From NCBI GenBank assembly GCA_040954595.2, contig CM082579.2, positions 5,204,879 to 5,268,878 on the forward strand: a stretch of 64,000 bases of DNA, written 5' to 3'. The notes beneath the pieces were generated by a model. The model did no database searches. It was not told where the DNA came from and was given only the letters and a program-made list of their open reading frames with translations. Below, one piece after another: positions 2-64,000 of this stretch (its first letter is position 1; each line of letters starts with the position of its first letter). Both the position numbers and the translations under genes were made by a program. The DNA is from Balanoglossus misakiensis (lineage: Eukaryota > Animalia > Hemichordata).

Positions 2-84
2 TTAATCCTTTCACCTCTATAGAGGTCTCACTTTACCATAGAAAACAATGGATTTGGACCAAACCATGGCAGCTAAAAGGTTAA
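2..84. mobile_element. Short TTAA-flanked MITE-like element
   Basis: TTAA-TCCTTT at the left end and AAAGG-TTAA at the right end (imperfect inverted termini). A degenerate similar core (ggatt..accaaac..tgg) occurs at ~6103-6196. Confidence 0.45.
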
Positions 85-143
85 CCTTTCACAATGTACC
101 AGGATGATGTTGTGGCTCCCAGCAATAAAAAAATAGTACTAAC

Positions 144-3100
144 CTCTTCATCTGTTGTGGCTTGGACCAACTCTGTTTTAACATCTCCGGGTTGAATGTT
201 GGTCACCTTGACGCCTGTTCCAACCAACTCCTGCCTCAGTGCACACGACATGCCTTCCACAAAGAACTTAGTCCCCGAGTACACAGCCAGTCCTGGGAAG
301 CCCTGTACATTTAAAGTCAACATGTTGGGATTAATGTCCAATATGAGCACACATTGCCGGAAGTCATGAATCTTTGCATATAGTGTGCATCCAAAGTCAC
401 AAAAAATTCTGGACGATATACTTTCTTTTCATTTTGTAACTGTAAATACTTGCCCTCCTGCCTGCATCCGATGATATGTTGACAATGTGTCCCTTGCCCC
501 TTGAGATCATACCGTCCAATACAGCACCAATACTGTTCAATACACCCTAGAAGAGGAGAACCAATCAAAGGACAGAATTCACCATTGTGTAATCAGAACA
601 ATCAAAAGAATCTAAAATAACCAAATGTCAAAAGTTAAGAGACTTTGTCCCTTTAATCTGTGGACAAAAGTGACTTCATCTGCTCCTGACCTTGCAGTTG
701 ACATCCACTGTCCTCTCCCACTCATCTTCGTGTAAATTCTTCATCATGGTGTAATACATGATGCCGGCATTGTTGACGATGATGTCCACCGGTCCGAGAG
801 TTGATTCTGTGTGTCTGACCAGCTCCTTCACCTGCAAGATTTCATGAATACCATATGTATTCTGGGGGTTTAATGATTTTTTGTCAACGCATAAACAGAC
901 TTGGTACAGTAACACACAAATTGGAATGGCGTTTCATTCTGCTAGGAGGGCCCATATTGCATACTGTGTGATTATTTATACTATAAATAAGAATTATCTC
1001 TCGCCTAACACCAGCTCCTACTTACTTCACTGCGGTTACAGACGTCTGTTTTGACCGCGATGGCCACTCCTCCATTCTTCTCAATAGTCTCCCGCACCTC
1101 GCTCAGTCTGTCTTCCCGTCTTGCTGCCATGGCAACCATAGCCCCAGCCTCAGCCAGTTGGGTAGCAACAGCCTTGCCAATCCCACTGGATGCGCCGGTC
1201 ACTATGGCTACACGGTCTTTCAATAGTTTTTGATCTGAAACAATATGGAATATATAAACTGCATGATTCTGCACAGAACTGAATGCTGCACCCCCAGGAG
1301 ATAAGTGGCATCTAAACAAACTAAAAGGGACTCGATGGGAATATCAAACACAGTGATAAATCTGCTGTACTATTCACCTGAACTAAGAGCTGCCATGATG
1401 GTCTGTGTATAATAGGGGGAGTACATGCACCAGGTTCACAAGAGGCCAGAGGTTATGAACTCCCTGCTGAATACCCATAAAGAAACATTGAAGTCTGCGA
1501 CCTGGGTGTTTGTCGCCCTCTAGTGATCACTTTTGCAGTAGCCCCCACACACTGTTTTAACGAAATTATATACAGAACTTGAGAAAAATAAATTTAATTT
1601 GATTGTGAAAAGACAACAGAGAGCAGGTACACTTGATGAATACACTTACCGTGAATATATCGTTTTGGTTGAGCGATGACATTCCTCTGTGCCAGATTCT
1701 TGAAGTAAACGGAAAGCAAGTCACTATTGAGGGACGGATAGGACATGCCAAACTCGGACAAAACGGCCTGCAAGTTGGTCAAACTGAACTTACTCAGTTC
1801 TGTAAATACTGATGAATTCCTAGACACAAAATCGAAACATGTATTGTCATAAAAAATCATGCTAGAGACTTGGAATAACACAGCACTGTGTGGGGAAATT
1901 AAAGTTTTGGGGCTGAAGTTGTACTAAGATAATGTACTATAGATGGATTTGTCTTGTACACAGTTCCACTATTCATATCTGAATGATTTTGTCTTGAACT
2001 CCGGAATACTTACGAAGCAATATTGTCCAACATTCCCCCAAGCTGCTGGTCTTCGTCGGTGTGATTGGAATTCTTTAAATCTTCAATTTTTCTGCGCCAT
2101 TCTTCAAAAGGTAACAGCTGTATCGGGTAACCATGGGCCTTCATCCACTCAAACAACCACCTGCAATTTTGATGAAAAATGAAAATTTTCAACGCTAGTT
2201 TTCTAACTTTACACAAAATGTGTTTTAAATAGAATTGATTGGGTATTACAGAACCACTGAAACAACCCTGAAATGACTGAGTGACTGATTGAGGCATAGA
2301 ACAGATTACATAATATGAAATACAATTTATGCAACACAGCAGCGTGTCTGTCAATGTCATGTACAGATGGACTAATTCCATTGTACTATCAGACATTAAC
2401 ATGAAAAAAAAAGATACTTTGCCCTGCAAATACAATAGATTATTTTAACTTTATCACTTGCACAGCCTTTGGTACGGATCAAAGGCTTATTAAACACTAT
2501 GTCTCGGTTAAACATTAAATAAAAAGGTCATTTTCTGTACAATTATAATGAATGTCACCAATTGACATTTAACTGGAATAACAAGGCAAAACAGTATCAT
2601 CATTAATGCAGTCTTTTTTGAGAGATTTACAGTCAGCAGAATACGAGATCCCTTGTGTTCGACTGCTGGGAGCAATTCATAATGGGGGAATACTATTCTT
2701 AGAAAACAGGATGACATGCTGGCATACCGTAAAATATTAATAGCACTCTTTTCAAACAGAAATATAAATTGGAGTGAAAATTTAACAGGACAATCAGTGT
2801 ATACATTGAAAATATACAAAATATGTCATGAATTTAGACTACAAGCATATATCCTTGAACCTGAATGGGCTTTAGACAGGAAAAGTAATATTTGTCACAG
2901 AGATAAAAATTGTGCAATTTGGTAGGATTTTCTTTGAAGAAATATATCAGAATACTCATATCTCTGTCAGTTCGAATTATGTAGTCTGAATTTAAAAAAG
3001 ACTGCCTTACCGCGATGCAAGAGGCCTAGGATTGACCATGTGAAAGACTTTGCCCATAGCCAGCATGATGTTCTGTGTGAGCTGCACTATAACACTGCTG

Positions 3101-6100
3101 ACAAAGTCTACGGGCGTCATCTCGATGCTCCAACCAACGTCCGGGGCACTCATTGTTCTGACACACCCCCTGATCAATAAAAGATTGGAGTCCATTGGAT
3201 TCCAGGCGGCCTGGGTACTGTCTCCTGATAAGTTGCCTGTGACGAGATACAAATGATTAGGTAACATTTTAAGCTGCCTCAGGGGGAGCTAAGACAATTG
3301 GCCTGCTCGGCAGGCAATGAGAACAAAAGGATTTGCAGTTGTTTTAAAAAAATCACTAATTAGCATACGCTGGAAACCTGTTGCAGGTATAGATAAGGTG
3401 AAAATCAAGACTCGGTCAAAATGTGACGCAAAATTTTCACCCATTTTCTAAAACACATTGCTCTAAATTTTACACACCTGGTCTATAGACTGCAATGGGT
3501 AGTCCCCTTTCTCTGGCATTCAACACAAGCTGTTCAGCCACCCATTTAGTCTGGCTGTACCCGTCATGAATTTTGTCTGCGTATTCGGTCATTTCAGCAT
3601 CTTCCATGGCGTTTTCCGATCCACTCGGGAATACACTGTTTGTGCTGAGGAAGGGAAAAGATTGGGTTCAATTTTGTCAGAACTTTGTGTAATTCCTTCA
3701 TGATGTGTCTAGAGAACTGACGGCAAAACACAGCAACATGCGAGGATCTACTTTCCAGTTTCGGAATGACTGAACTTCATTTCTACTAACCTGATGTAGT
3801 GAAGAGGTTTGATTTTATTGCTGCACGCAAACAGCAGGATGTTCTGCGTGCCCAGAACGTTGACCCCATGCAGAGCTTTGTACGGGTAAACCAGATTGAC
3901 GTAGGCTGCTGCATGAATTATGAAATCAACCTGTAAAAATATTGAATGAAAACTTATCATTTTTATGTAGGCTGCATTTACTTGATTAACGGAAACAATG
4001 TGAAAGGTCGCTTGTCACCTATGCAATTTAACTACAGATCTCTTGATAAAAGCACAGAAATTCTAAAATGAAGTTCTTCACCTCATATGTCAAATGTGTG
4101 TAATCTTCAACGTTCATTCCCAGGTTAAGTAGAGACACGTCACCTGAATAAAGACATAAGAAGTTATCAATGAGCATTCCTTTATATGAAAATAAATTTG
4201 TCAATTTTATGTCAAAAATACAAAAAAAAAATATGAGTTTTTATATAGGCAAACAGTAGAACTTTAATTCCGTATTCATGAAAAAATTCAAATCAGCTGA
4301 AATGTGAAAAACTATCATTAACATTTCTGTTTGCTTCAATCACATGGAATGTCTGGTCAGTACAGCACCTGGTTTTGAAGGACTGGTAGTAAAAAACCTG
4401 TCTCCTACCTTTCATGGGTGCAACCCTGTTCTCAAATTCTTCCAAGATCATCTTCTGTTCCGCCGTTCCGTTTCCGCCATCCGGCAGTATTCCGTATTCT
4501 CTGAGAACTCCCAGCAGACGTTCCCTACAGTTGGACTCCGGTGGTTCCCGCACCAGGCAGTAGATGTACAGCTGAAGAGAGAGAGAGAGAGACCAGCAAA
4601 ACTATTATCACACAAAAAAGTTCTCAGTGAGAACAATTTCTGCTTTCATGACATATCAAGAATATTACAAATGCGACATCTATACGATGAGTAATTACCT
4701 TAGTGTCTCTGAGCAGATCTCTCAACAGGAACGCCCCCAGGAATCCAGTGGCACCCGTCAGTAAGACACGCCCTCTTTTCCATCGATTGCCATACTGTAT
4801 AGACCGCCAGAACGCCCTCAACTGCATGTCTATACTGACAACACCTTGGCTGTGCTTGCTTACTTCGGCCAACAGATCCAGCTTAGACTCTTCCTGCGTA
4901 AAGCTACAGACATGATAAGCAGATCAGAAAAAGCACTGATGGTTCCATGTGTTGGGGATATTTGCATTGATGTCGCAATGAAATGAAACGTGGAAGAGAT
5001 GAAGATGATAAATTACTAATAATCAATGTAACAATGCAATCTTACGTTTGTCCACTTTCTTTATGTTGCAGTTTTGAATCTATCAGCTTGGCCATCGCGG
5101 CAACCGTGGAATGCTGGAAGAGGTCCTTGACAGTGACGTCGACCTTGAACTTGTCTGTGATCAGCGAGAGCAGCCTGGCCGCCAACAAGGAATGTCTGTG
5201 AGTAAAGAGAGACAAGATACTGGGTGATGAATAACTATTCTGTGGATGAGTTAGGTGGCCACATACAGTGGTTTCAGATGCAGGAGTGCAAGTGATGTTT
5301 GTCCTTGTGTTTTTCAGCGGCATTTATGCATATGAGCAGACTACAAGTTGTAACCACTACTGTAACCAGGTAACATGTGAAAACAAATGCCCGAAAGAGT
5401 TTCACCTCTAGAGGGCTTTCTGCTCACAGTGGTGATAACAAGTGAGAGGTACTTCTCATTCTTTTCACTGTCACACGACAGGTTCAGCGAACTAAAAGCA
5501 ACAACCGGAGACTCACTTTGACTTCAGCCATCATGACAAAAATAAGAAATCTATGGAGAGTAAACGATTTACGTACCCGCCTAAATCAAAGAAATTCTCC
5601 TGTATGTCCAGAGATTTGACCCGCAGGATATCCGACCAGAGCAGCGCCAGCGTTTTCTCGGTCTCTGTTGACGGGGAGGTCATCTCATCTCGGTCCCTTT
5701 CACTGCCCTGATCTAACGGAGGCAGAGCTTTCTTGTCGAGCTTGCCAGACGCGGCAAGTATCGGAATGCTGTGTGTGAGAAAGAGCAGGAACACACATTG
5801 GCTTACATCAACCTCCACCCCACATTACGGCCCTAAAAGCACAGATAGTCGCAACATGAAAATTTTACCTGGACAAGAAAACCATGTATGACGGGATCAT
5901 GTGAAAGGGTAGTCTCTTCTTCAGCTCTGCGCGGATTTCCTTCTTGGTGGCGTCGTTGTTGGGCACGATGTAGGCCACCAGGAATTTATCGGTGCCCTCT
6001 TCACCCTTGACAAGCACCACGCACGCATTTACCATAGGGATCTCGAGCAGAGCTGATTCCACGGCCTGCAGGGGAGACAATGTAAGACATAGGAAGCTGT

Positions 6101-9100
6101 TGTTTAACTCTATCAGTCACCCCCGTTTCTCTGCATATACATTCAACCAGTGGTCACAAAAGAACGGATTCAACCAAACTGTGGTGGTGACAGGATGATT
6201 TTTCATGGACTTCATCTGGATTCTACATCACAATGTTGCACATTGCCAAAAGAAATGAAATTTGGTGGTCAACTAAAATAACATCTGTTAATTCTGACAC
6301 CCCTCTCCCATTTATTGGCTCATAGACATGACACACATGTATAATTATTTGAAGAAGATGGAAGACATGTTTGTGTAACACACCCCATGCACACACTCAC
6401 AAAAAACCTTGATTCATAACATTTTGTAATAATCAGACTCCTTGCTGCATGAAGCAGGACTGCATGAGTAAGAACTTGAGTCCCCCCGTGGCCCCTCCCC
6501 CAATTTATGTGATATGAGCATGACAAGTTGACACTGACCTGAACCTCAATGCTGTATCCTCGTATTTTCACCATGGAGTCACATCGGCCGCAGATCTCCA
6601 GCTCTCCGCCGTAGAGTATGTATCCCCAGTCACCGGTCTTGTACAATCTGTCACCAACCTGTTCCGGCACCGCTGGTGGCCTCTGGATGAACCGCTCGGC
6701 GTTCAGCTGTGGTCGATTCAAGTAACCCCTTGCCAAGGTAGGACCACCAACATAAATCTAGACAAACCGTGTTGCAGGTTTGAATTTGATACATAAAATA
6801 TCCACAGAATGACCTCAAGATCACAACTTGCACAAAAAAACCTGCTATTTCAATTGTCACACTTTATACACACACTTATTTCTTTCAATCAAAACAGTAT
6901 CATCCGATTGCACATATGAAGATTGATTTCACCTGTTGTAAAATATTTGAAAGTTTAGCACCATTGATCACAACTATCTCATGGTAATATGCTACAATAT
7001 AAGACTTTAATTCCAGCACAGCATAACACAAGACAAATATCTAAAGGCAACACTACGCCAACTTTGGTATGGGTCTGTTTCAACCAATATATGTATATTT
7101 GATTTACCTCTCCTGGTACCCCTACAGGTAATGGCTGTAACTTGTCATCCATGATGACAATCTGCACTCCGGGTAGGAGCTTTCCCACTGGACAGAATTT
7201 TCTTGGCTTCTCACCATCACCCATCTTGTTGGAGAAAAGTAAGAACAACAACCAAAACATGTATGTTAAAGATGTCGTCATATGTGGTTGGTCGTACACA
7301 CCACAGAATAGGCCTACAGTACTCAGGAATAAGATGTGACACATCAACTACTGCAGTGTTCTTTGGAAAATAGACGCAGATGCAAGATTTGTCACATTAT
7401 AGTGGTACAAATAGAAATACTGTTAGAGCATGTTTGTAGGAACACATATTTCCATCGCAGTCATATTTGCATGTACTGTGCTGTCCGAATTCCGAGTTTC
7501 ACCTCCTGCCAGACTTACCCCGCCATTGTACGTTCCATGCGAGAGATCGGCTGTAGCTACGTCATGGCATTCTGAGATGCTGTAGAGATTCAGTAGCTGT
7601 ACCCAGGGCAGAGTCTTGGCCACCCTGTCGCGCAGCGCAGTGGTGACCACTTCACCACAAAACCAAATGATCCTGCATTATAACACAAGAACATATCATG
7701 GCGAAGTTCCTAAGATTTCTGAAAAGGACGCAAGATCAATAGATAAACTAAAAAATTTTGGTGTTTGACATTTCAGCAGTCAAAGTGACGACTGATCAAG
7801 CCGACACTTCCACATGTGATGTGCATGTCTGGACGGTCTCCACTGACCTGAGAGACTTGAGGGCACCTGCGATGTCCAAATTCTCGGTGTTTATGACTGC
7901 CTCCAACAATGACGGTGTGAAGAGAATCCGGGTGATTTTGTGACGTTTTAAGAACTCCACCAGCAATGGAGGATCATAAATGACATTATCTGGGATGATG
8001 TACAGTGGGATTCCTGAAAAAAAATAGAGCGGGTAGGTGTTTTTTTTTTGTTTTCTTCTGATTAACAGAGTTCACATGTGACAGTTGAGTTTGCCTCAAC
8101 TGTCTTATAATTCCACACAGACATGCCTCTAAAGGAAAAAAAATGTCCACAATGCTAAAAAAATGATGCAAATTTACAAGTGATGTCAAAAGTCCTGGAG
8201 CCTACTCGGGAGTCTCAAAGTGGTGTCAAAGGTCACTGTGGTGTCGTCATAACAACTGCGCCATAAACTGCAAAGTGTATCTGTCGTCGGAGTTGTCAGG
8301 GGGGAAAAAATGGCAGAAGTTTAACCTACCCTTCAAGAGGGAACGAAGCATTTCCCACACAAAGAACACATTGCATGCCACTCGCTCCTCGGGCTTGAAC
8401 GGGTAGTTAACGTGTCTCCAGTGATAGGAAAACACGGCGCCGCGATGGGGGCACATGATGCCTGAGAATAAAAGACAGAAATTACTTTGCAGTTGTTTGG
8501 TGTGAAAACAATTATTTGACCAAGAAATTTGTGACAAACCTCACAAACTTGGCAAGGCTGATTTTATTTAATTTCTCTCATATAGATTTGGCCAGTCAGT
8601 ATAAATAACGCACACAATTTTTTCCACAAAGCGGGGTTTTGTGAAAATTATTTTCCCAACTGAACCTAAAGGAGACACACAAAATAAGCCTTGCCCAACT
8701 TTCCCTTCAATACAATACAATGTGAATGCTGAACAATAAAAAAATTACCATTTTATTTACTATAATTGTCAATTGCTATTCTGTATTGTTTGGTACGTGT
8801 GAACATCTGTGCAGTTTTATCATGATTTATAACTTAGTTGAACCTTATACATATAAAATGACCTTTTACCCCTTTCGGATTTGCATGATTTTACCCTTAT
8901 ATGGCAAATTTGATGACGTATTGACAGCGTCCGTAAATAGAACAGTACGTTGCTTGGTTGCAATATGGTACATGTAGGTCCCTGGTAATAGAACTTGGCT
9001 GGAGGACTTTCGCTCTTATGCATGATACATGCTGAACAGTCAAAGTTTATAAGAACTCGACCGATCAACTGAACTGGACTGGGGTCACGTACGAATAAGT

Positions 9101-12100
9101 GAGTGCTACTATCGTTGGTAATAATTAATTTGGATTTTGACTGTGCTGATCCAAAATATTTGGGCTAACACCTCTACTGAGCTCTCTTGGGCAACATTAG
9201 CTTGCTAGGTTCATGTTTTGCAAATTTTTTGGCCAAAGAATATTTTTACACCAAAGACCTAATATATGATCAATGGAAAGCACTTTTATTTCTGTGTCAC
9301 CAAAAATTGTAGAACAGGAAGTGTGTTTTTTTTTATTCCAATGAGTTGTTTACAAAATCTCCAGCGTCATGTAGTGTATGTACGGTAGTATGCGAACTGG
9401 GTTTCCTGTTTTCATGGTTTGATTTTATACAATGCATGGATATACTCTTAGTCCCTCAATAACTGAGACAAGCAGGATTCACTGTGTTATCTGCACTGGT
9501 CAGATATATTATTAAGTTCTTAAATTGGGGATCAGTAATTTCTTTCTGCTCAATTGCAGTTAAACACCAACATCTCTACCCACAATGGAAGGAATTTTTG
9601 GAAACCGTGATAATGTGGCGTTTGGAGTAAAGAAGGAAGACCCATGTCGAGGGTACATGCCAACACCTCCACCTGAGATGGCAGGAATAAGGGGAAACAG
9701 TGAACATGGTGATCCTCTCTGTCAAAAGGAAGACAGAGGTAGTGAAAGACTCAATCCCCAGGATTTTGAAGCATATAGGTTGTATCTGTCTAAGCACATC
9801 AAGGCTACCATACAGCAGATTGAAGAAAACACCGGGATGACCATTGATGAGTTTACGATTGGAAAATCGACCGCAAAATACTTGGCTGGGGGTGAGCTGG
9901 ATTACAGCAACCCCAGAAATCGATGGAACACATATTACAAATCAAAGTTGAGGTATGATGGTTTCACTATCATCGCAGAAGTTACAGAAGACATGGTACC
10001 ACGTAAGACGAGGGATAAATTCAGTCACATTGACCCGCAACAATACGCACTTGCTCTGGAACAGAGTCTGATTCATTACTTCATCTTTACGGATCCTGAT
10101 CAACGCTTGGCAAACCACTCTTTTCATCCCGGCAACTTGGCAGAGACCCTGCCAGTGGGAATTGTGTACTTTGCATATAAGTTTGATTCGAAGAAGAAAA
10201 TCCCCGAATATGACGCCGTTTGCCAGGGAGGAAAGGGATACGCTTTTAAGTTAGAAGATGCAAGCGAAACCATCAGTTCAGCAGCAGATGAGGCTGAATC
10301 ACTCGAGAAGAGAATTGCATCGGTCCTGAGAAATGTCGAAGATAAAAGTGGAAAAGAAATTGAGGAATTCACCATCGGTCAATCCCATACAAATCACAAT
10401 AAAGTAAAGTGTGAGACATGTTTCAGATTCGAACCCATGAATCCAGAGACTTGGCATCTTGCGGATGGAATTGACGACCTTTGGAAGGAGAAGTTCCTTC
10501 CGGATGGTTACCATGGACTTATAGTTGTTGCAGCAATAACCAATGACATGGTGCAAGGTGCAGCCAGAGGAAAGTACCAGTGCAGACACCAATATCAATG
10601 TGCCAAAGCTATCATGGGGAACCTGAACTGGCGGTTTAAAGCGAAGACCAGAAGCATTAACCAACAGCCAATGTACCTCAAATATAATCCACTGGGTGAG
10701 AAGGAAAGGGTATGGAAAAAGGACGTCGCCAATGCATCTGTTTTGTATGTAGCGTACAAACTGGAACCTAGCAGAGAACATGTCGAGCAAGGAGGCCTCA
10801 GTTTCAACGAGACTGACATTGAAGGTAAAACTTTCGCAAAAGCTGCAATGCAGTTGAAAGAGAAGATTAGCACAGTACTCCAAGAAATTGAAAAGGGAAA
10901 TCAAAGGAGGATTAAGGTGTTCGAAGTTGGCAAAACCTGCGCACAACGAATTAGAGAAGTAGGCAGCTACTTGAAGTTCAAGGTTAAGGAGCACACAACT
11001 TGGAATACGACAGAGCTGACAAAACTGTGGGACGGAAGCCGAAGCAAATTTGACGGAATGGTGGCAGTGGGTGCAGTTACTCGTGACATGGCCATATGCA
11101 AGGTTAAGAAAGATGAAGGTGACAAGCACAACATCCAACTTCAGTACACCAGGAAGCTGCAGGATGCAGTAACTGCATATTTTGAAGAGGATCCCAACTG
11201 GCACGAGAAATGTCAACGGTCTGCATACCCTTTCCCTTACGAAAGCTGCTGGGCTGGAATTTTATTTGTAGCATACAAATTTGGGGAAGATGAGGGTCAT
11301 TTCAAAGTTGAGAGCAGAGATGGAGAAGAAGAAGAAGAAAGAGACGATGATGATGATGATTATCAAGAGGAAGAAGAGAATTGGCAGCAGCAGTGGCAGA
11401 AGATACCCTGCGACCACCAGACAAAAAAGATGGTTTAAAAAAACAACAACAATAGAAATCCTACCTTTAGGCTTTCCAGTGGTGCCAGATGAGTAGACAG
11501 TATAGGCCAGGTTGTCCAAGGTCATCTGAGGTGGACTGTCAAATGGAGGATGCCTGCTGTTTTCTGTACGCAGTCTCTCTGGCCAGTTCTCGTCCAGGAT
11601 CACCACACTCTTTGCACCTGAGAATCACCGAGATGAAATTTAATATTCATAATTTGCAAAAAGCATTTGCGGCATGCTTAATGAGGGTGTTTATTTTCCA
11701 AGGGGGTGGATTTGTTTCCATAAAGGTATAATCAAGTTTTTCCTGGAAAGATTGCTGTCTACTTTCTTGTGAATTTTTGTAAAAATAAATGTTGCACATT
11801 TAATAATGTGTGGTGATGTTAAGTATCGGTACTGTACAGGAGAACATGAGATGAAAGGGGTGGGGGAATCTTTGTCATAATTGCTCCCTTGCCCCCATGA
11901 AGACTGTGATGCTATTCAGCCATTGGATGACCTCTCACCTTTGACATTCTCTGCTATACTCTCATTGGTGACAACAGCAATTGGCTGGGAGTCTTCCAGA
12001 ACTGATGACAGCAAGGGTGGAGGATAGGAGATGTCTATGGGTAGGTATGCACCGCCTGTTGATGGAAAATATAACAAGGGAGGTCACATAATAAAATAAT

Positions 12101-12612
12101 ACCAAAGTGAGTGACTTTGAATTTAAGGGGACTTCTACAGAGTAGGTGAAACCCCAGAATTCAAAAGGTCTGCTGTACAAGCACGATTTATGGGAATATG
12201 TGCTTATTGCTGTCATTGTATTTGCTCATGCCGCTATCACATGACTTCAACTACATGTACATTTTCCCTGTAGACTAGACACTGCACATTTGGTCTGTTT
12301 GCGACATTTTGAGGGGGAGCACTGTTTTAGTTATAGGCCTGCATCATGTTCGTGGGAGATGAACTCACCTGCTTTTAGGATTGCTATGTAAGCCACCGTG
12401 TATTCCACGCACTTTTCCATGTAGATGCCGACTATGGAGTCTGGCACCACTCCGAGGATGCGCAGATAGGTGGCCAGGCAGTCGGTCTGCGCGTCCAGTT
12501 CACCGAAGGTGAGCTTTCTGCCATCGTCGGATACGACCGCCACATCGCCAGGCGTCAGTTTGGCCTGGCGAATGAACATCTCATGGAGGAGGCCTTGTGA
12601 TTCATAATCCAT
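144..12612 (-). CDS. NRPS-like A-T-R-R enzyme (adenylation, PCP, thioester reductase, YdfG-type SDR); ATRR / glycine betaine reductase-like; about 23 coding exons; 3' end runs off the window
   Basis: Spliced minus-strand exons give ordered motifs. Start [13 protein letters not shown] (ATG 12612). A domain: A3 [15 protein letters not shown] (exon 11617-11465), CNVFFVWEM (8461-8330), A5-like NLYSISECH (~7590), A7 YKTGDWG and A8 [15 protein letters not shown] (~6640-6545), A10 [10 protein letters not shown] (~5760). PCP: ENFFDLGG|HSLLAA (~5580/5190). R1: [11 protein letters not shown] (~4750), [19 protein letters not shown] (~3550). R2/SDR: TGASSGIG (~1190), NNAG (~770), YSGTK (~275). Splice phases that were checked are consistent. 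Confidence 0.9.
303..453 (-). other. GC-AG intron in the SDR domain of the A-T-R-R gene
   Basis: Donor AGG|GCAAGT joins SSDAGRR to [12 protein letters not shown] in phase 0. The nearby GT donor would shift the frame. Confidence 0.75.
9585..11438 (+). CDS. Nested antisense gene with intronless 617-aa CDS: three tandem diverged ~190-aa modules plus an acidic tail; uncharacterised
   Basis: 1854-nt uninterrupted ORF entirely inside host intron 8462-11464. The repeated pattern (L.K.I...L..IE..G..I.EF.IG[KQ][ST] ... W ... [YF][DH]G......[VI]T.DM ... [YF][FV]AYK[FL]) occurs three times. An acceptor (ttgcag, 9559) lies 25 nt before the ATG, with a candidate upstream donor GTGAGT at 9099. Confidence 0.85.
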   Translation: MEGIFGNRDNVAFGVKKEDPCRGYMPTPPPEMAGIRGNSEHGDPLCQKEDRGSERLNPQDFEAYRLYLSKHIKATIQQIEENTGMTIDEFTIGKSTAKYLAGGELDYSNPRNRWNTYYKSKLRYDGFTIIAEVTEDMVPRKTRDKFSHIDPQQYALALEQSLIHYFIFTDPDQRLANHSFHPGNLAETLPVGIVYFAYKFDSKKKIPEYDAVCQGGKGYAFKLEDASETISSAADEAESLEKRIASVLRNVEDKSGKEIEEFTIGQSHTNHNKVKCETCFRFEPMNPETWHLADGIDDLWKEKFLPDGYHGLIVVAAITNDMVQGAARGKYQCRHQYQCAKAIMGNLNWRFKAKTRSINQQPMYLKYNPLGEKERVWKKDVANASVLYVAYKLEPSREHVEQGGLSFNETDIEGKTFAKAAMQLKEKISTVLQEIEKGNQRRIKVFEVGKTCAQRIREVGSYLKFKVKEHTTWNTTELTKLWDGSRSKFDGMVAVGAVTRDMAICKVKKDEGDKHNIQLQYTRKLQDAVTAYFEEDPNWHEKCQRSAYPFPYESCWAGILFVAYKFGEDEGHFKVESRDGEEEEERDDDDDDYQEEEENWQQQWQKIPCDHQTKKMV

Positions 12613-14402
12613 TGCACGTCTGTAGATTCAATAGCAGAAATCTTCAACTGATAAAAAAATAGTTCCTCAAATATGATAACTCTCAAATACATGAAGTACT
12701 GTTGATTCTGACGTGACTGTATTCATATTTGGACCTGATCACCCAGTTTTATGAATGAGGGAACACAGTGCAATGTAGTAGGCCAAACCTGGAATGCTAT
12801 AAACATATTAGCCGCATGGTTGAAGGTTAATAGCTCTGAACAGCATGAACGACCCGAAATCTGTCATGTTTCTCAGTATTCTGATAGCAGAATTGTATTA
12901 ATTTCTAGCATGAAGCAAAACAAAATTTAGAGATAAAAGTGTCATCTTAAACTGTGGGTGTTAAAAACAGTCCCATCTGCCACTGTTGGTGGGCCTAGGG
13001 TCCCATACGACACAGTAGCTGGCAAGTCAAAATAGGTCACATTCCAGCTCCAAATTCCACCATATGCCGTGCAGAACCCACTGTCTATAATTTTCCAGTG
13101 TGCAAAAATTCCTCAGTTCCTAACTTACCCTCCTTTATACATGTACAGATATCGTGCCATGGAATACATGATGCTGAGCTGCCGAAGCTTTCACTATTAA
13201 AGCATGTACAGTAATGGTCTGCACTGCAGTCTATGGCTGGATTCCCCAGGAAGGACAAGGCAATGAAACACTTTTATGTAAACCTTGGTAGCTCTATTTA
13301 CATGACAATACCAAAGAAGAGGCACAGTATTTAACCGGATTGATCTATTGTGAAATTCATTCAGACAGAGTCCTTACAACGCAGTTGGCCAGTGCATTGA
13401 TTATTGTGTTTTTTCATGCTTGGTGATCTCTGCTGGCACAGACAATGAGGGGGAGATTAGGGTTGTTCATAGAAAAGGTGCATCAGGAATTATTATTGCT
13501 GTTTATGTGGTTGCTGTTGTTATTATTAGCATTTGGCATGTGACTAAATATTATAAATAGTAGTACTGCTGGACACGTGACTATAACTATTTCAAAATAT
13601 GTCCTGTGCTGTGAATGACCGGGTGAGGGCTGATCAGATTGTATAGGACACACAGCGATACCACAGGAATATAATATGACCACAGTTTCAGTTTATGTTC
13701 AGAACAGCATAATCAGAATTTATTTTTACAACTCTGGAAATGCTCATTGCTGGTACAACAGATGACTGGAGCTGGTTATCAGTAAATTGATTTGAGTGTT
13801 TGTTAATATCAATTTGTTTGGTTGGTTTACTTTGTTGTATCCTTGTAATTTATATGATAAATAATTAACCCCCCCCCCCCCTCTCGGGTCAATGAACTGC
13901 TGAGCTAGTACACTAACGCACATCCCTATTTATAAATGTACTAAAATCAAAGCAGAAAATTCTGGGTGAGCCCTGGCTATATAACTGCCAGTTATATATA
14001 CTTTACAGTAGAGCTGAACCAGCACAGCACTTTAAACAAGGCGTACTATGGCCAGAAAGAAGATAGCATGCTGGCCATTATAAGTTTACTTACAAAGCCT
14101 TAAAGCAACACGAGGGCACCAGTGAAGGGTGGTTTGTGACAGCAATGATACCTTGCCGTTTAACAATTGTGTCCATGTATAAATCAATGGTCAACTCACA
14201 ATCTCATGTTTTTTTTCATAAAAAGAAATAAAGAAAAGTGATATATGACACAAGATTTGTTACTAGTCCACTTCGTCAGACACCATTGATTGGGAGTTCC
14301 ACACTCCGTGCACACAATGCAAGTTTCAAGTAAAAACAGCTAAAAACGTAATTTAAAACAAAATGATGTTAAATCATGTGTAGAGTCTGTTAAAGATCTC
14401 AC

Positions 14403-14460: not shown

Positions 14461-14787
14461 AGGCTTCCAAAGGACTATGGACTTTGATCAAAGATCATTT
14501 CTTATCAATTATCATTATGTAAACCAGTGCTTGACCCTGATGTTTGTCATTTCAACATGCCTACAACTTCTCGCCCTTGGATCGAGCTACAGTATAGCCT
14601 AGCTATAGAAAAATAGACCAACATATAAGGATATTAAAAGACTTCTTACCGTTCGGTGGTAAGTACCAAGTAGAGGGAAAATTTCAGAAAATAATGATCA
14701 GAAAAAAAGTCAAGTGAAATAGTCTATAAATGATATTCATTTTATAAAATAATATGCAGAGAACTTATAAGTTTGACCAGAAAAAGT

Positions 14788-14800
14788 ATGGTGATGATGA

Positions 14801-14834
<34 letters not shown>

Positions 14835-15004
14835 GGTGGACACGATGATGATGATGATGGCGACGATGATGATGATGATGATGATGATAATGATGATGAA
14901 AATCCTCTCTAGATAATGATGATGATGATGATGATGAAAATCCTCTGAAGATAATGACGACGACGAAGGTGGTGGTGGTGGCGGTGATGATGATGATGAT
15001 GATG
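14788..15004. repeat. Compound (GAT)n/(GGT)n microsatellite
   Basis: Long GAT and GGT runs with GAC interruptions and a duplicated gatgatgaaaatcctct unit. Confidence 0.95.
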
Positions 15005-15357
15005 CTAGCAGCTACAACTCACCCACTTGCCATTTAGCACCTTGAGTTCAAACTTCCCGCACGGATCCCCACAGCCTCGTTTTCGCATATATTATTGGCT
15101 AGCTATGATTGAGATATATATTTTTTAGTTTTACAATATATTGGATCTCATTTGGTATACGGAAAAACGCATTGTTATTTGCGTGTCTTGTTAAAAGCAA
15201 TGATTTGATTTTGACGAACGTGAGACTGAAAATTATGTGCTACTTTAACATTTGACCTATGACCCTGCATATGGCGTCTGGTTTGTTTTGTAAATCGTAG
15301 GTGCTGATCGACCAAACGTAACTGCATCATCAGAGAGATTTATCCGAGTTAAGCACC

Positions 15358-17408
15358 ATGTCTGCGTATTCAATGGTTAAAGGAGGAAAGTTAAAACTTA
15401 AGGGAAGTTCAGCTGGGAGTGGAAGGTAGGCCCCTTTCTGTGTTATAGTCGATCGCCGTGTAAACAACAAACAATTTCGCATAGGCATATACGGCTACTG
15501 TTTTCACGTCTGGTTTACAATTTCTTAGGTACCCCAGATTTTGCTAAAATGGGACAAATGAATGTAAATGGAATATATTTTTGTTCTGCTAATGAAAGCT
15601 TCCACTCTTTCAAAGACTTTGGTGTTCACTATTGTCAAAATTCTGTTGACAGTTCAAAGAAACACAAGAAGAAGAGGAAACGAGAGAAAGAAGACAAGGA
15701 TGTCAAAGATGAAGATGCTGCAACACATGGTATGAAATGTACTTATTCAGATGAAACTTTTTTTACACGCAAGCTTAGACTCACTCACAAGGCTGCTTTG
15801 ACATGTTAGCCTTATATAATAATTTACCATATTTGACAGGTGGATGGTGGACAGTTGACAAAATAGATGAAATACTTGGAACAGTTGCAATAGAGATGAC
15901 TCCAAATGCCTTTGTCTATGCTCTGGACAATGGACTTTTTACAATAGGAGCTCCACATACAGACAGTAAGTAATGAAGTATAAGTGCAGAAATGGCATCA
16001 CACATTCTGGTTTGTGGTGGATTAATCATACATGTCCATATCATATATACTGCAGATATGTGATTACAATGTATAGGTACTATACATTATAATCACAATA
16101 CAACACAAAAATAGTTACAGCTGATGAATGCACCCTTTTCATAGGCACAGAAGGGCCTGAGCCACCGGAACAGCTAACGGCAGTCCGTGTTTCCGAAAAC
16201 CAAATAGCGCTGAAATCAGGGTATGGCAAGTATCTCACAGTGGACTCTGACGGTTTAGTCACCGGGAGATCTGATGCCATCGGACCAAGAGAGCAGTGGG
16301 AGCCGGTCTTTGAAGAGGTACGGCGGAGATTTTGATGATGGTGTTTGTCATCACCCACATTCAACTTCTGCCTTCGGAACGGCATCTCTGCTGAGCATTG
16401 AGCAGCCTGCAAATAACGCCATCATGAGTCTAATTATAGGGAATCCTTTGTTTATGACAACATTCCCATTGAACAGTTTGGGGGATAACAGGGGGTGGGT
16501 GGTCGGGGGAGTGTACTAGAAACAGTTTCCAATCTCCAAAACTAAAAGAAAAGCAGTGAATTTAGAACCTCACAGAAAGTCCCCTCAAAGCACCTTTTTA
16601 TTTTATTTCATTCAGGGAAAGATGGCACTCAGTTGTCACAATGGATGCTTCATGTCCTATAATGATGAAACTGATATTGTTGCCAAGAGCCAAGCAGCAC
16701 GTGAAAATGAATTTATTAAGGTAAGAAGATTCGTTTGTTTAGAAATGTACAATGTCAACTGCAGTTGTTGTGTGAGCAAAAGTTGTCTAACTCTTGGCAG
16801 AGAAAGCCTCCAATACATTGAGTACTTAAGTACCCGTTTTTCTCCTAATTTTTTCACCAGATTCGGTCCAGTGCACCCAGGGTGAAGAAACAGAAAGATG
16901 ATTTCGTTCCGGATGAAGATAAAGGGAATATAGGAACCTGTGAAGTTAGTTATGTGTAAGTATAGAGTCAACCTGTATTTGCATGTTTCTGTTTGTCTAT
17001 GTCTGAACATGTCAGGCAGTAACTGAACCCCCTGCCATTTCTTGGACTCCAGAAATGTGTTGCATCTTTTTTTGCATTTTGCACTGCAATTCTGATCCTT
17101 TTGTTTGCTACTCTTTTACAGGAAAAAGTTTCAGAGTTTTCAAGACAGAAAACTGAAAATAAACCCTGGTGATAAAGCTGAATTACAAAAAGCTAGAACG
17201 ACAGGAAAATTGCATGAAAAGCTCCTTGATAGGTAAGAGAAAAAACAGCTTTACCAGTGGGTACAAAGATATTAGCCATTTTCATGCTGTCTTCATGACA
17301 CATACACATACATTGGGCGGTCAGCAAAGAATTAACGATACATCCTCTCTTTTTTTCTTCTCAAAACACAGACGGGAGAAGATGAAAGCTGACCGTTACT
17401 GTAAATAG
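15358..17408 (+). CDS. FRG1: Protein FRG1 (FSHD region gene 1 homolog), 8 exons
   Basis: [16 protein letters not shown]; basic [12 protein letters not shown]; GGWW; [14 protein letters not shown]; [11 protein letters not shown]; [18 protein letters not shown]; [10 protein letters not shown]; C-terminal [11 protein letters not shown]. Exons ~15358-15425, 15653-15729, 15840-15966, 16145-16317, 16616-16720, 16861-16955, 17122-17232, 17371-17408. Confidence 0.96.
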
Positions 17409-20595: not shown

Positions 20596-23500
20596 ATGAA
20601 GGTGTTGTGGTTGTCGCTGGCGATTGTGGTGATCCAAGTTGTATATTCACAAAAACCGCCGGTAAGTTGTAACTAGAGTGCGCAAAGTGACCAAGTTTCA
20701 CAAAATACTGAATGTGTACTGGCATTTAGAGAAGAGTGCCTGGATGTTGTTGTCATGAACTGATCAATGATTATGAGCATAGGTTGAAATTGAAAACTAG
20801 GTCAGGTAGTGAACAACACCATTGTTATTTAAACTATGGAATGCTGAAAAAAAGTGACACATTGGCCCATTTTAGACATTAATTGGCCTATTTTGGCCAT
20901 ATATAATGTCCATATTTGCTATCCACAGTTCACAGAACCCTGTCGAAATGACATGTACCCACCAAAGCCGGAGACCAAGGTTCCTACCTATGTAGTCAAC
21001 CTTGATGCTGATCCCAAAGACAGATGGAAGGAGGTTGTCACGGATAAAACCGAGGAGGTACGTATCAAGTATTGGCAAAAGTACATAAAAAGTAATCTTT
21101 GAACTTTTTCCGCCACTATCACTTTTTACAAAAATAGCTGCCATTCAGGGTTAAATGATAAATTTCTATTTTACGCCATGATTTTATCTGACATCTTTTT
21201 GCATGTGCAACTCCATTCTTATCAGTTTTGCACCTCTTCATCTTAGAAAGGTGACAATGATAAAACATGCAACATTACTATTTTTTGTACAGTTCAAGTA
21301 CATGTTAACAGTCATCAAGAATCTGACTTCATCATTTTTCCAAGGATCACTCATGGACTTCATCGACAAACACTTTGTAAGTAGAAAACATACAATTCTA
21401 TGGCACTGATACTTGCTGCTTGTAGCAGAAATCGCAGGCATAATTGTTTTTCACTATAAATGCATCTTGGGATGAAATAATCACTTTGTAAAAAATTATG
21501 TCATATTTGCCACTTGAGGTCGCTGTTCCCACCAAGAAGTTAAAAAATGCACACTCACTCAAGCCAAAGTTCAAAAGTCTGTGTTCTTTTTGTCCAATTG
21601 ATCAAATACTGTAATTTGTCATTTTTTTCAGGGTACCATAGCCTCCGGTTTGCCAGCCCCATATGGTGATGAGATAATAGGCATAGCTGCTGCTACAGGC
21701 ATACCACTAGGTAAGTTTCACACTTTCCTTGATTGCAGTTCCTGATTTCAGTCCTAGAGACAATTTCTGTGTTTACTCAGACATAAAAGTTCTAATCTGT
21801 TCCCTGAACCTTTGCAGGGATGCCAGAAAAATTAGTGTCCATGTGTAAATTAGAGAAAACTGTTTCCTTTGAATTATGAATTTTCTCTGTTGTGTTTTGC
21901 AGGAGAGGTGGTGTTATATAATGTGTTCTATGAGTTATTTACACTGTGTACCTCCATTGTGGCTGAGGATCCTAGTGGTAAGAGAACTCAAGAAATTCTC
22001 CAGTAAATGCCCAAAAAGGCTGCAGCAAAAAAACAAACCAAACAAAGAATGTGGTTGTCACATTCATAACATCAAATCAGGCACATGATGCAATGTTTGA
22101 TTTTTTTACCGCAAGGGCAGTTAAGTACCTCCAATCAGAAAATAATCATACAAGTTGTTAAGAGTGTATGTTTTCCAACTACATAAGTTTGTTGATATCT
22201 TTCTTTACAAATTTATTTTTTGTCCTGCACAGGCAAGTTGTACCATGCAAGGAACCTGGATTTTGGCCTCTTCCTTGGGTGAGTGTACCAGCTATAACCA
22301 GTTTTCAATAAAAGTCCATGCTGTATCTTACCAATAGGCACTGTGAAATATCTGTCCCACAATATATTTTAGGTCTAAATAAACTCTATACTTGGTTTTA
22401 GCATTTATTTCAGAGGTATGATACAGTGTCATGCAATGTCTTGCATGCTAGCAGCTTAATTTTGGATAAAGCACTTAGCAGATGACTAAGGTCTCAGTGG
22501 ATGCAAAAATATCAGCTTGTCAATTTTGTTTCATTGCAGATGGGATACTCATAACGACACTTGGTGGCTGTCCGAAGCACTGCGTCCTCTCATTATCAAT
22601 ATTGACTACCAGCGTGGTGGGAAAACGGCCTACCAGGCTGTTCACTTCGCTGGTTATGTGGGAATCCTGACCGGCATCAAACCAGTAAGTTGGACATTCC
22701 CTTGCAAGGATGCTGTTATAGATACGTTCTGCATAATGCTTTGCCAAACGAAGAAAAAAATCATTGCTCTGCTTTTCAGTTATATTTCTTTTCTCCGATC
22801 ACAGAAAGTCTTTACGGTAAGCATGGACGAGCGATTCAATGCTGATGGAGGTTTCATCGGTTTTATCGAATGGGTGCTCGGTCAACGAGATGCCAAATGG
22901 GTGGGGTTCATCACCAGAGATGCTATGGAAACCTGCAACAGGTATGAACCTAACAAAAAAAGACAAATTTCACGGTTTAAAATGTATGACTTATTGGACT
23001 TATTAGGAGTGTCTGAAATCTTGGCAAATATCACTCACAAAAGTATTCTGCTATGCTTTCTCGTTTGCATACCGTAGTTACGACGAAGCGCTAGACTTGT
23101 TGGCCAATCACAAGGTACTGGCACCTGCCTACTTCATCCTGGGTGGAAATCAGTCTGGAGAGGGCGCTGTCATCACCAGGGACAGGGAGAAGGCTGTGGA
23201 TGTTTGGCAGTAAGTGTGCAGTGTGGTCACGCACTTCTAAAGTAGGATTGCTAGAGGTTATAAACAGCAAGTTAGGGTATTTTACTTGTGGTTTAATAGG
23301 ACCTTTTGGGGGAAATTAGCATACATGGCAGAAAATAACCACTTGACGAAGTGAAGTGACTATCTCTCCCCAAATACTAAAATGTTTTGCACGTATACAC
23401 ATTTCCCTTCAGTATGAATGAGACTGGGCATCCGTGGTTTATTCTGGAGACAAACTATGACCACTGGAAAGCCCCTCTGTTCTTGGACGACCGACGCACC

Positions 23501-24261
23501 CCGGCCACAGAATGCATGAACAAGATGACACAAGAGGTATCGTTGATGCGTTCTAAATGTCAAACTTTGTACTCTTCTGCTAGACTACAAAAAGTTTGAG
23601 ATATCCCACAGCTAGGCCTACAGATTTTCTGTGTAGTCCCTGCGAGATAAACCTCAAATGTAGAGAGACTAACATTGTTCATTCGTCACATGACTCTCTC
23701 CTCGATTGTTGACAGGTATTTTCACTGAGATCGAGTTGATAAAGTTTGAACAGCTGTGACAAGGAGACCCTGACATGCCATGACCTTGTGGCATTCAGCT
23801 GTCAAGAGAACTCTACTTTCACGCTCAAATCTATTTGGTCAAGTCACAGTCCCTCTAGTACACACCCACATTCCCAATCATGTGTCAGGTAGTACAAGTA
23901 TAATTCTTCGCCATAAAATTGTGTATTTCGTTTCTTTCAGAATGTTGGCATTCCAGGAATATTCAACGTGTTGAACACCAAGCCAATGTTGAACAAGGTG
24001 AAAAATCACAACTTAAATTACTTTTATCTCTGACTAAGCCAGGATACGATGTGGAAAGACATAGAGTGTGTGAAAGTTGGAAAGTCTTACTTAGTTGTCT
24101 GTACACTTATACAAAAACTTTTTTTTATAATTACTGAAAATATATCTTTTTGTGTGCTGTTCCTTTTGCAGTTGACTACCTACACCGCTGTGATGCAAGT
24201 CAATGCAGGTCACCTGGAAACCTACATCCGCCACTGTCCGACACCGTGCGCGCCATTTTAA
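20596..24261 (+). CDS. ASAH1: Acid ceramidase (N-acylsphingosine amidohydrolase, Ntn hydrolase), about 12 exons
   Basis: Signal peptide [18 protein letters not shown]; [16 protein letters not shown]; autocleavage nucleophile YELFTL|CTSIVAED; [15 protein letters not shown]; [13 protein letters not shown]; APAYFILGG; [10 protein letters not shown]; [22 protein letters not shown]; KPMLNKLTTYT; ends CPTPCAPF*. Confidence 0.95.
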
Positions 24262-25533
24262 TCACTGGAAGATGCAAACCCTAATTACCTATGCAAACAA
24301 TGCAAACCCAGTGAGCCTCAGGAATATTTTTAAAAAATGAAGGAGAGAGTCAAAGAGGAAAATTAGCCAGTGTTGAGCAGCTGAAAATTATCAGTATTTT
24401 AATCCTTTCATCCCTTTTTGATGTACAATTATTTTTGGAGGGGCTGTCTGCTGGAAAATGTGTTTTTTAACATCCTACTTGGTAGGTAGATACCAAGCAT
24501 GGATCTAAATCAAAGACAACTGAGTGTGTACAATGTACATGATCATATTTTATGGATTCAATGTGGCACTGACTGTATATTTTGCGATGTGATTTTCGAA
24601 ATTTTATAATTGACTCATGACTGTCTTTCCCTCCTGTCTTCTTGATGTTTCAGATAAATTTGCAATAAAATCTTTCTCAATCTGATAGTTCTCTTATTTT
24701 TGTCTGCAAGTGCAGTCGGCACAGTAATGCACATCTTCTTCTTGTCATTTACACAACTGCTCTGTTATAAATTACTACTGCACATTTCCTCAGAATGAAA
24801 CACACATAAACATGATGATAAAATTATATAAGAGACATCATCAAAGCATTTGTCTTTGTCAATTTAAATCAGGTTTAGTACTTATGTAATGATTTCTGGA
24901 GTCTAAACAGAGGGGTGAGATTGTTATGTTTTTCTGAATGTGATTTTAAATGAGCCCAGTGAAGAATAGTTTCATTTATTGGACACATGATAAGGTTTGT
25001 TAATGTTATACACCGAAGGCAAGTTTCAACGGGGAGTACTTGGATAACAAAGTCCTTCAGTGTTTGGTACCCTGTACTTTTAACAGATTACGAATTTGCG
25101 ACCTTCAGACCGAATAATACCCTGCAAACTCGTACAGGCCTGGCAGAGTTCGTTAACCCATAGTCATCTCATGACAGTCACATGGTCTTGGGTGTTCCCA
25201 AAATGAGCAAGATGGACAGAATGTCATTGAAAATAAAAAAATACCTGAATGGGATTCCAGATATTTCTATGGGCTGTTTTTCGATCAACTGAACCACCAT
25301 AAAACTACATATTCAATGTTTGTTCCTTGCGTGTAAGGTTTTCTTTCTTCAGAATGCATAAAATGGAACACAAGAGAACACTTTTGTGTGTGTAATGCGA
25401 GTGTTTTGGAGGAAATATACATTTTCGTTAGCTATTTGCTAAACTGCTTGACAACTTGACATGTACCTACGAGAACTCCCCTCGATGCTCTTTTGTTTGT
25501 GGAGCTGTGCAAAGCATGATGGGAAACACCAAC

Positions 25534-63644: not shown

Positions 63645-64000
63645 CTGGAAGGAGTGGGTAGAAATTCTAGAATGCCACTCGGACAACCGAAGAAGTCATG
63701 GACTTCAGTTGGTGTATTGGCGATAACACCTACATGTAACGCAGTCAGCACTCGACTCGCATGAGGCAGGTCACTTGTGTGACCCCTGAGTGACCTGACA
63801 TCCAGGTGTTTTGTTGGTATGACATCATTCATCATTCAACGTTACATACAACATTCACCCTTTTGTATTTTGTAACAGACAATATTTAAACTTTTTTTTG
63901 TTCTAGGATGAGTTAGACTGCACAGATTCAATAGTATGGTCGACTTTTCCAGAGTTTGAACTCAAAATGGTCAACTCATACCGACCGCAGCGGAAGAAGC

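Follow-up and report, generated by a model that had tools for sequence, protein, structure and literature searches.

A nested gene in Balanoglossus misakiensis encoding three copies of a predicted circularly permuted GIY-YIG domain

Introduction

To our knowledge, animals have few GIY-YIG nucleases, these being SLX1, ANKLE1 and Penelope. Here we describe a protein that may be related to them, encoded in a 64,000-nucleotide stretch of DNA from the hemichordate Balanoglossus misakiensis (GenBank assembly GCA_040954595.2, contig CM082579.2, positions 5,204,879 to 5,268,878 of the forward strand; the whole stretch is referred to as the window, and positions are counted from its first nucleotide). 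The gene in question is a single-exon open reading frame (ORF) located in an intron of a larger gene on the opposite strand, and its product comprises three modules, each of which, as judged from conserved residues and structure models, very probably adopts a circularly permuted GIY-YIG fold.

The elements that define GIY-YIG nucleases are the GIY tyrosine, a YIG motif whose glycine is fixed, the arginine helix, the linker strand and the glutamate helix (PMC3045582), and the residue set of URI/GIY-YIG proteins has been given as Y, YxG, R, E and N (PMC3482391). The corresponding residues of I-TevI are Y6, Y17, G19, R27, H31, E75 and N90, its PDB entries representing the R27A and E75A mutants. 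Compared to I-TevI (1ln0, 1mk0), the family to which the B. misakiensis modules belong has its GIY strand at the C-terminus, an extra long N-terminal helix and approximately 20–30 residues inserted between YxG and the arginine, and contains no separate DNA-binding domain; the window gene is furthermore nuclear, of animal origin and placed antisense in a spliceosomal intron. Eco29kI likewise has a long insertion separating YxGK from the arginine helix, and its motifs come into register with those of the family after permutation (though not above the level of block shuffles); a dispensable YIG tyrosine together with a tyrosine four residues after the arginine (Arg+4) is a likeness to Hpy188I (PMC3045582). 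In contrast to these two restriction enzymes, the window gene has no methyltransferase partner, a permuted order and an animal host. The anti-phage nuclease CMoRE/PD-T4-3 (9u75) is likewise a single-gene GIY-YIG protein and a structural match (Z 3.9), but it is unpermuted and carries a modified-cytosine sensor domain (PMC12923530), nothing similar to which was seen in the window protein. SLX1, ANKLE1/LEM-3 and the Penelope endonuclease share the same predicted catalytic chemistry in the animal nucleus (PMC1564403), but they have the unpermuted order and come with a fused RING, ankyrin/LEM or reverse transcriptase domain, none of which is present in the family.

No description of a permuted GIY-YIG domain or of this family was found in the literature searched, which included PMC10853773 and PMC11377751, with subscription journals outside the scope. 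The 2006 survey of the superfamily likewise contains no such family and no occurrence of "permut" in the portion available (PMC1564403). The supplementary alignments of PMC3482391 could hold related URI families.

Results and discussion

Three divergent copies of one domain

The original prediction, made from the DNA letters alone, was of a stop-free 1.85-kb ORF that fills most of a 3003-bp intron and runs antisense to an adenylation-domain gene, and both parts were confirmed (Table 1). The 617 codons contain zero internal stops. With 624 codons, the stop-to-stop frame is the longest of the 31 frames of at least 120 amino acids in the window (the runner-up has 207), and the chance of so long an open frame at the composition of the intron is approximately 1e-19.

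The encoded protein had been proposed to consist of three homologous modules with shared motifs, alike as proteins and heavily diverged as DNA. This description proved accurate: the quoted motifs are present, the modules are pairwise 24–28% identical (E 3e-7 to 4e-11), and no DNA-level match between them was found by BLASTN. The profile of the family described below matches residues 43–210, 202–404 and 398–615 of the protein at E 2e-46, 1e-34 and 2e-26, respectively. Modules 2 and 3 do contain the QGG at which they were thought to begin, but the module starts lie a few residues ahead of it, and the Asp/Glu-rich C-terminal tail was found as foreseen. An internal triplication of the module was not rejected, as grouping the three modules in a single clade gave an approximately unbiased test value (p-AU) of 0.64 (38/142 rows; tree poorly resolved). 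The divergence of the modules, previously read as a sign of long purifying selection, would date such a triplication and not the time of residence in this intron.

A family of marine invertebrate relatives

Searching 1.84 billion representatives with HMMER returned 295 relatives of the module at E ≤ 0.001, the best 150 of which were examined and supplemented with further ones from profile searches; in all, 266 proteins carry the domain, the window's protein included. Among 291 domain hits, the 241 full ones were used for a residue census and the 50 partial ones were dropped. The best match to the nested protein is from Saccoglossus, and the nine relatives with a species name are all from marine invertebrates, namely acorn worm (Saccoglossus), brittle star (two from Amphiura) and bivalves (two Mytilus species, two from Pinctada, Mactra and Mercenaria). 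No family in Pfam, NCBIfam, PHROG or PADLOC covers the domain or is common to it and GIY-YIG proteins, and sequence searches of the PDB gave no match below E 0.1.

Single-domain members are approximately 190 amino acids long, and more than one domain hit was found in 12 of 250 proteins, one of these apparently being a single split domain. The predicted site, as defined in the next section, is kept in 195/222 single-domain proteins, compared to 9/19 domains of multi-domain proteins. Three sets of 16, 12 and 11 relatives, each set apparently from one source, have domains that are 30–95% identical, with an intact site in 13/13, 11/12 and 9/12 domains, respectively, from which we infer clusters of paralogous genes. 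The family domains are basic, with a median isoelectric point (pI) of 9.2 and a pI above 8 in 81% of 255. Extra C-terminal domains occur sporadically (C2H2, PHD, OTU, BTB, TAFH), and some of them may be gene-model fusions; the fused relatives (P0002, P0017, P0049, P0263, P0004, P0011) include proteins with PHD (among them one from Pinctada), with an OTU-like protease (Mytilus) and with C2H2 fingers (Amphiura and kin). The proposal of a lineage-specific enzyme or effector family is thus supported by the 295 relatives, the conserved set of polar residues of catalytic type and the many paralogues that probably share single contigs, while the earlier statement that no named family could be assigned has been overtaken by the predicted permuted GIY-YIG identity.

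Conserved residues in GIY-YIG order

The census (n = 241) revealed a glycine in 239 domains, a lysine in 232, an arginine in 214, a histidine or tyrosine at Arg+4 in 220, a glutamate in 219, an asparagine in 224 and a tyrosine on the last strand in 238. The conserved motif at the place of YIG reads (Y/T/V)-I-G-K-(T/S), in which the glycine is nearly invariant (239/241) and the first position is tyrosine in 141/241 domains and threonine in module 1 of the window. Domains with this tyrosine and a histidine at Arg+4 number 131/241, and those with another residue and a tyrosine at Arg+4, module 1 among them, 85/241; this split follows one main branch and was not counted as co-evolution. The spacing between the arginine and Arg+4 equals that of R27 and H31 in I-TevI, and the order of the residues is that of GIY-YIG nucleases, save that the GIY tyrosine comes last: approximately 100 residues separate YIG from the GIY-like strand, which is C-terminal, and an N-terminal hairpin starting with GIY is absent. 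This C-terminal position of the GIY strand places the family outside every canonical GIY-YIG subfamily.

In the model of module 1 (predicted local distance difference test, pLDDT, 90), every one of these residues occupies the element expected of it: T91–G93 form a strand, R113 and Y117 lie on a helix (108–119) followed by a strand (126–133), E159 is on a second helix (151–169) followed by N177, and Y195 is on the final strand. The top residue couplings join R113, E159, N177, T91, Y117, K94 and Y195, and pair the last strand with the linker strand. Module 1 has the complete predicted site (T91-I92-G93-K94, R113, Y117, E159, N177 and Y195). Module 2 has Leu299 for the arginine, Met344 for the glutamate and Gln266 for the lysine, and module 3 has Leu481 for the arginine, Gln526 for the glutamate and Phe561 for the GIY tyrosine, leaving both without the arginine helix and Glu/Asn features of the GIY-YIG signature. 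A loop bearing a tryptophan (Trp in 230/241 family domains) is kept in modules 2 and 3.

Structure and profile comparisons

A naturally restored strand order is offered by the relative P0093, in a stretch where the last strand of one module is followed by the next module (model pLDDT 86). When this reordered model was compared to 48,161 chains, I-TevI (1ln0, chain 2–93) was found at rank 4 (Z 3.9, root-mean-square deviation (rmsd) 2.8, 72/92 residues) and CMoRE/PD-T4-3 (9u75) at rank 5 (Z 3.9, rmsd 2.8, 73 residues, 19% identity), with the N-terminal domain of a plant glutaredoxin (2lwf) at rank 8 (Z 3.5) and HIGLE (7wme) at rank 22 (Z 3.0). The latter two are likewise GIY-YIG domains, giving four such chains in the top 22 (Z 3.0–3.9). 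Provided that no gaps occur at the alignment ends, the family tyrosine falls on Y6 of I-TevI and Y19 of CMoRE, and the family asparagine on N90 of I-TevI. The native-order model of module 1 gave no GIY-YIG chain in the top 50 of 48,161 (VIA), and none was found by VIA in a second look.

Among viral structure models in BFVD, the native order had three matches annotated as GIY-YIG (ranks 2, 6 and 7) and one, at rank 10, annotated as a group I intron endonuclease, with a best E of 0.018 among these. The closest viral structures to module 1 were A0A1V0SLJ9 from Klosneuvirus (E 0.006) and A0A5K0U8Q9 from Yasminevirus (E 0.018), both with a TM score of approximately 0.4, and these are candidates for unpermuted sisters. 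In the Atlas, module 1 itself had no match; the neighbours of the single-domain relative P0003 (0.90–0.92) have members with GIY-YIG (11%), T5orf172 (14–22%) and MUG113 (14%) and, bacterial neighbours included, serve as leads only. For profile alignments with hhalign, 25 I-TevI-like and 25 Eco29kI-like proteins served as references. Probabilities stayed below 4% with the whole family, and were 49% (I-TevI-like) and 22% (Eco29kI-like) with the subgroup of the Tyr and His form, values that are biased as the subgroup was picked by its tyrosine.

Several of these comparisons weigh against the assignment of a permuted GIY-YIG fold with an active first module. All GIY-YIG Z-scores lie under 8, in the unspecific range of the tool, and bacterial STING ranked first for both models (Z 5.0–5.1, rmsd 4.2–4.6), with a designed protein at rank 2 for the reordered one. 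The two models also differ in more than strand order, the native one being module 1 of the window and the reordered one P0093. Foldseek returned nothing from the PDB for either model, and the best BFVD E-values were just 0.006–0.02. Against relatives of I-TevI, hhalign aligned 8–18 columns with a score independent of the cut point; against the Eco29kI family, 84 columns aligned in register and required the permutation, at a score of 27 compared to up to 36 for block shuffles. The couplings, in turn, may reflect joint loss of the residues in dead copies. Module 1 has a threonine (T91) in place of the YIG tyrosine, lacks eight columns of the Trp loop, including the tryptophan of 230/241 domains, and has a pI of 6.0 in an otherwise basic family (8.2 for module 2 and 7.1 for module 3).

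Proposed mechanism

Each module would comprise the YIG strand, the arginine helix, the linker strand, the glutamate helix and the asparagine loop, with the GIY strand, coming from the C-terminus, added last in the centre of the sheet. By analogy with Hpy188I (PMC3045582), E159 of module 1 would bind one Mg2+, Y195 would activate the attacking water with Y117 as a proton shuttle, and R113 would hold the scissile phosphate, perhaps helped by K94, which may also replace the missing YIG tyrosine; Hpy188I itself is active without that tyrosine (PMC3045582, PMC2630997). A single site of this kind would nick one DNA strand per event. Modules 2 and 3 likely bind or position DNA or serve as decoys, because the Trp loop is kept there, while module 1 has lost it and is slightly acidic. 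The acidic tail could damp the active site in the manner of the acidic loop of CMoRE.

Given the GIY-YIG fold, activity of module 1 is quite likely. Given both, a function in defence is still favoured, with a role of the family against viral or transposon DNA as the least certain step of the mechanism. Such a role is suggested because the paralogue clusters are fast-diverging and intron-poor and have a preserved active site, and CMoRE provides a precedent for a defensive GIY-YIG nuclease from a single gene (PMC12923530). The full combination of a permuted GIY-YIG endonuclease that cuts with module 1, uses modules 2 and 3 as dead helpers and is probably defensive is our preferred account, on which we place slightly less weight than on its failing in some part. 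A broader version is rather doubtful: marine invertebrates would carry a family of restriction-like immune nucleases of permuted GIY-YIG type, clustered and repeatedly fused in tandem, here with one cutter and two dead modules gripping the target DNA, and standard profile and fold searches would miss the family due to the permutation.

If the assignment holds, a large animal GIY-YIG family has been overlooked by Pfam and Foldseek, and the GIY-YIG fold has undergone natural circular permutation, with the tandem forms illustrating how one site is retained while sister modules decay. If the single-domain members prove to cleave foreign DNA, the restriction-type defence of bacteria would have an equivalent in animals, and these members would provide a compact nuclease scaffold that is new.

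Alternative explanations

The same nuclease could instead do housekeeping work on host DNA, cutting branched or damaged DNA like SLX1, ANKLE1 and UvrC. Known animal GIY-YIG proteins, SLX1 and ANKLE1, have such functions (PMC1564403), and the PHD, C2H2 or OTU domains on some relatives suggest a chromatin setting. However, copy number is unstable, as seen in the above sets of 16, 12 and 11 proteins with 30–95% identity, fusion partners vary, many multi-domain copies are dead, and vertebrate, insect and nematode names are absent among the nine named relatives; clustered, diverging paralogues with recurrent dead copies suggest a conflict gene more than a repair gene, and we regard the housekeeping function as improbable. 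A selfish gene that settled in the host intron, whether a free-standing homing-type endonuclease or a nuclease carried by a transposon, would agree with the use of GIY-YIG domains by homing introns and Penelope elements (PMC1564403), and the ORF is indeed intronic in a conserved gene, free of coding introns and preceded by an inverted-repeat relic just upstream. On the other hand, no terminal repeats or target-site duplications flank the ORF, although this tells nothing against a free-standing homing gene, which needs none; no second copy was found within the window, scans of 150 + 19 relatives (E ≤ 0.01) turned up neither a transposase nor a reverse transcriptase domain, and the relatives are diverged paralogues instead of near-identical copies, two of them with their own 5′ untranslated region (UTR) acceptor. 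There is accordingly only a slim chance of a selfish origin of this kind.

Two further explanations concern the protein itself. It could have the GIY-YIG fold without cutting, acting as a nucleic-acid binder, a decoy or a regulator of active paralogues, in line with the loss of the arginine and glutamate in modules 2 and 3, with an acidic module 1 that is short of the YIG tyrosine and the Trp loop, and with a tail that could mimic DNA. Yet module 1 alone retains all of G, K, R, Y, E, N and Y, its combination of a non-tyrosine with a tyrosine at Arg+4 recurs in 85/241 domains, and Hpy188I shows that the YIG tyrosine is dispensable for activity (PMC3045582), which makes a non-cutting protein hardly probable. 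Little weight is also given to a domain other than GIY-YIG, such as a nucleotide-binding domain similar to STING or some unrelated alpha/beta fold with the conserved polar residues lining another pocket. STING occupied ranks 1, 2, 4, 5 and 9 in the search with the native model and ranks 1, 3, 6, 7 and 9 in that with the reordered model, and no profile library names the domain, but the STING fits are loose (rmsd 4.2–5.5, 6–13% identity) compared to an rmsd of 2.8 over most of the domain for I-TevI. Moreover, the order and spacing of the conserved residues are those of GIY-YIG proteins, and GIY-YIG matches appear only with the last strand placed first.

Gene structure, host gene and neighbouring sequence

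Table 1 Positions of the nested gene, its modules and associated features in the window
Feature	Position	Strand	Remarks
Host gene, approximate span, A-T-R1-R2 layout	84..12627	-	Pfam PF00501, PF07993, PF00106
Host intron with nested gene, 3003 bp, GT-AG ends	8462..11464	-	Interrupts adenylation-domain codon
Stretch between imperfect inverted arms (~8491-8531, ~9221-9260; 80% over 41 nt)	8491..9260	.	0/100 simulated stretches reach score
Candidate splice donor, non-coding first exon	9099..9104	+	Sole GT[AG]AG[TA] match in 8462-9585
Polypyrimidine tract with acceptor AG, candidate end of an intron in the 5′ UTR	9539..9559	+	AG ends at 9559, 25 nt upstream of ATG
Nested single-exon ORF, 617 aa, three modules and acidic tail	9585..11438	+	
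Module 1 (aa 43-203), predicted circularly permuted GIY-YIG domain, predicted site intact	9711..10193	+	
Module 2 (aa 204-397), same family, Trp loop kept, predicted inactive	10194..10775	+	
Module 3 (aa 398-570), same family, Trp loop kept, predicted inactive	10776..11294	+	
Acidic tail, aa 571-617, 18 D/E in 47 residues, pI 4.2	11295..11435	+	
First AATAAA 3′ of the nested ORF's stop	11784..11789	+	Beyond next host exon (~11465-11617)

The acceptor ahead of the start codon and the upstream donor, both named in the original prediction, are present as sequence features. The non-coding first exon that they would delimit is a candidate, which gains support because two relatives (L043 and L044), single-exon ORFs of approximately 600 and 800 amino acids, have an acceptor-like AG 1 nt upstream of their ATG; such an exon would fit a trait of the family. 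At the other end, the stop codon is 26 nt from the end of the intron and the first AATAAA follows only beyond the next host exon, so a nested transcript would run, with its 3′ UTR, antisense over that exon.

The host gene had been taken for a non-ribosomal peptide synthetase. Its adenylation domain was confirmed, but the gene is not a generic synthetase and instead has an A-T-R-R (ATRR-like) layout: six of the nine host frames were scanned, with matches to AMP-binding, NAD_binding_4 and adh_short, and the carrier domain was read by eye in a frame without a Pfam match. This domain order is that of ATRR glycine betaine reductase, reported from fungi, protists and invertebrates (10.1101/559534), the likeness being one of domain layout. 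The other introns of the host are, as claimed, much shorter (up to approximately 900 bp), the sizes being a by-eye reading of the frames and not a computed exon map. No functional link between the ATRR-like host and the nested gene was found, and the location of the latter in this intron is likely incidental.

The inverted arms upstream of the ORF can be aligned further to approximately 65 nt. Between them lie the candidate first exon and its donor, but not the ORF; the stretch may be what is left of a small DNA transposon, now decayed, from which a promoter was derived. The nested gene itself may be domesticated from a mobile element or horizontally acquired, as once proposed, although the searches run revealed neither terminal repeats nor a viral or prokaryotic locus. 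No relatives were found in viral contigs, phages, plasmids or (by pattern) GTDB genomes, in searches that were insensitive or partial, and three samples of 401 genomes each (approximately 800 distinct genomes, no positive control) gave 0 matches.

Beyond the host gene, the window contains a long trinucleotide simple-repeat tract (~14740–15020), FRG1 (~15779–16900, +; Pfam match) and, by eye, an acid-ceramidase-like gene (~20848–23600, +), the single scanned frame of which had no Pfam match. Frames further along presumably encode a GM2-activator-type protein (~25432–26718, +), an LDLa/LRR G-protein-coupled receptor (~37278–45691, +) and a fibrinogen-domain lectin (~60280–63666, -), all read by eye.

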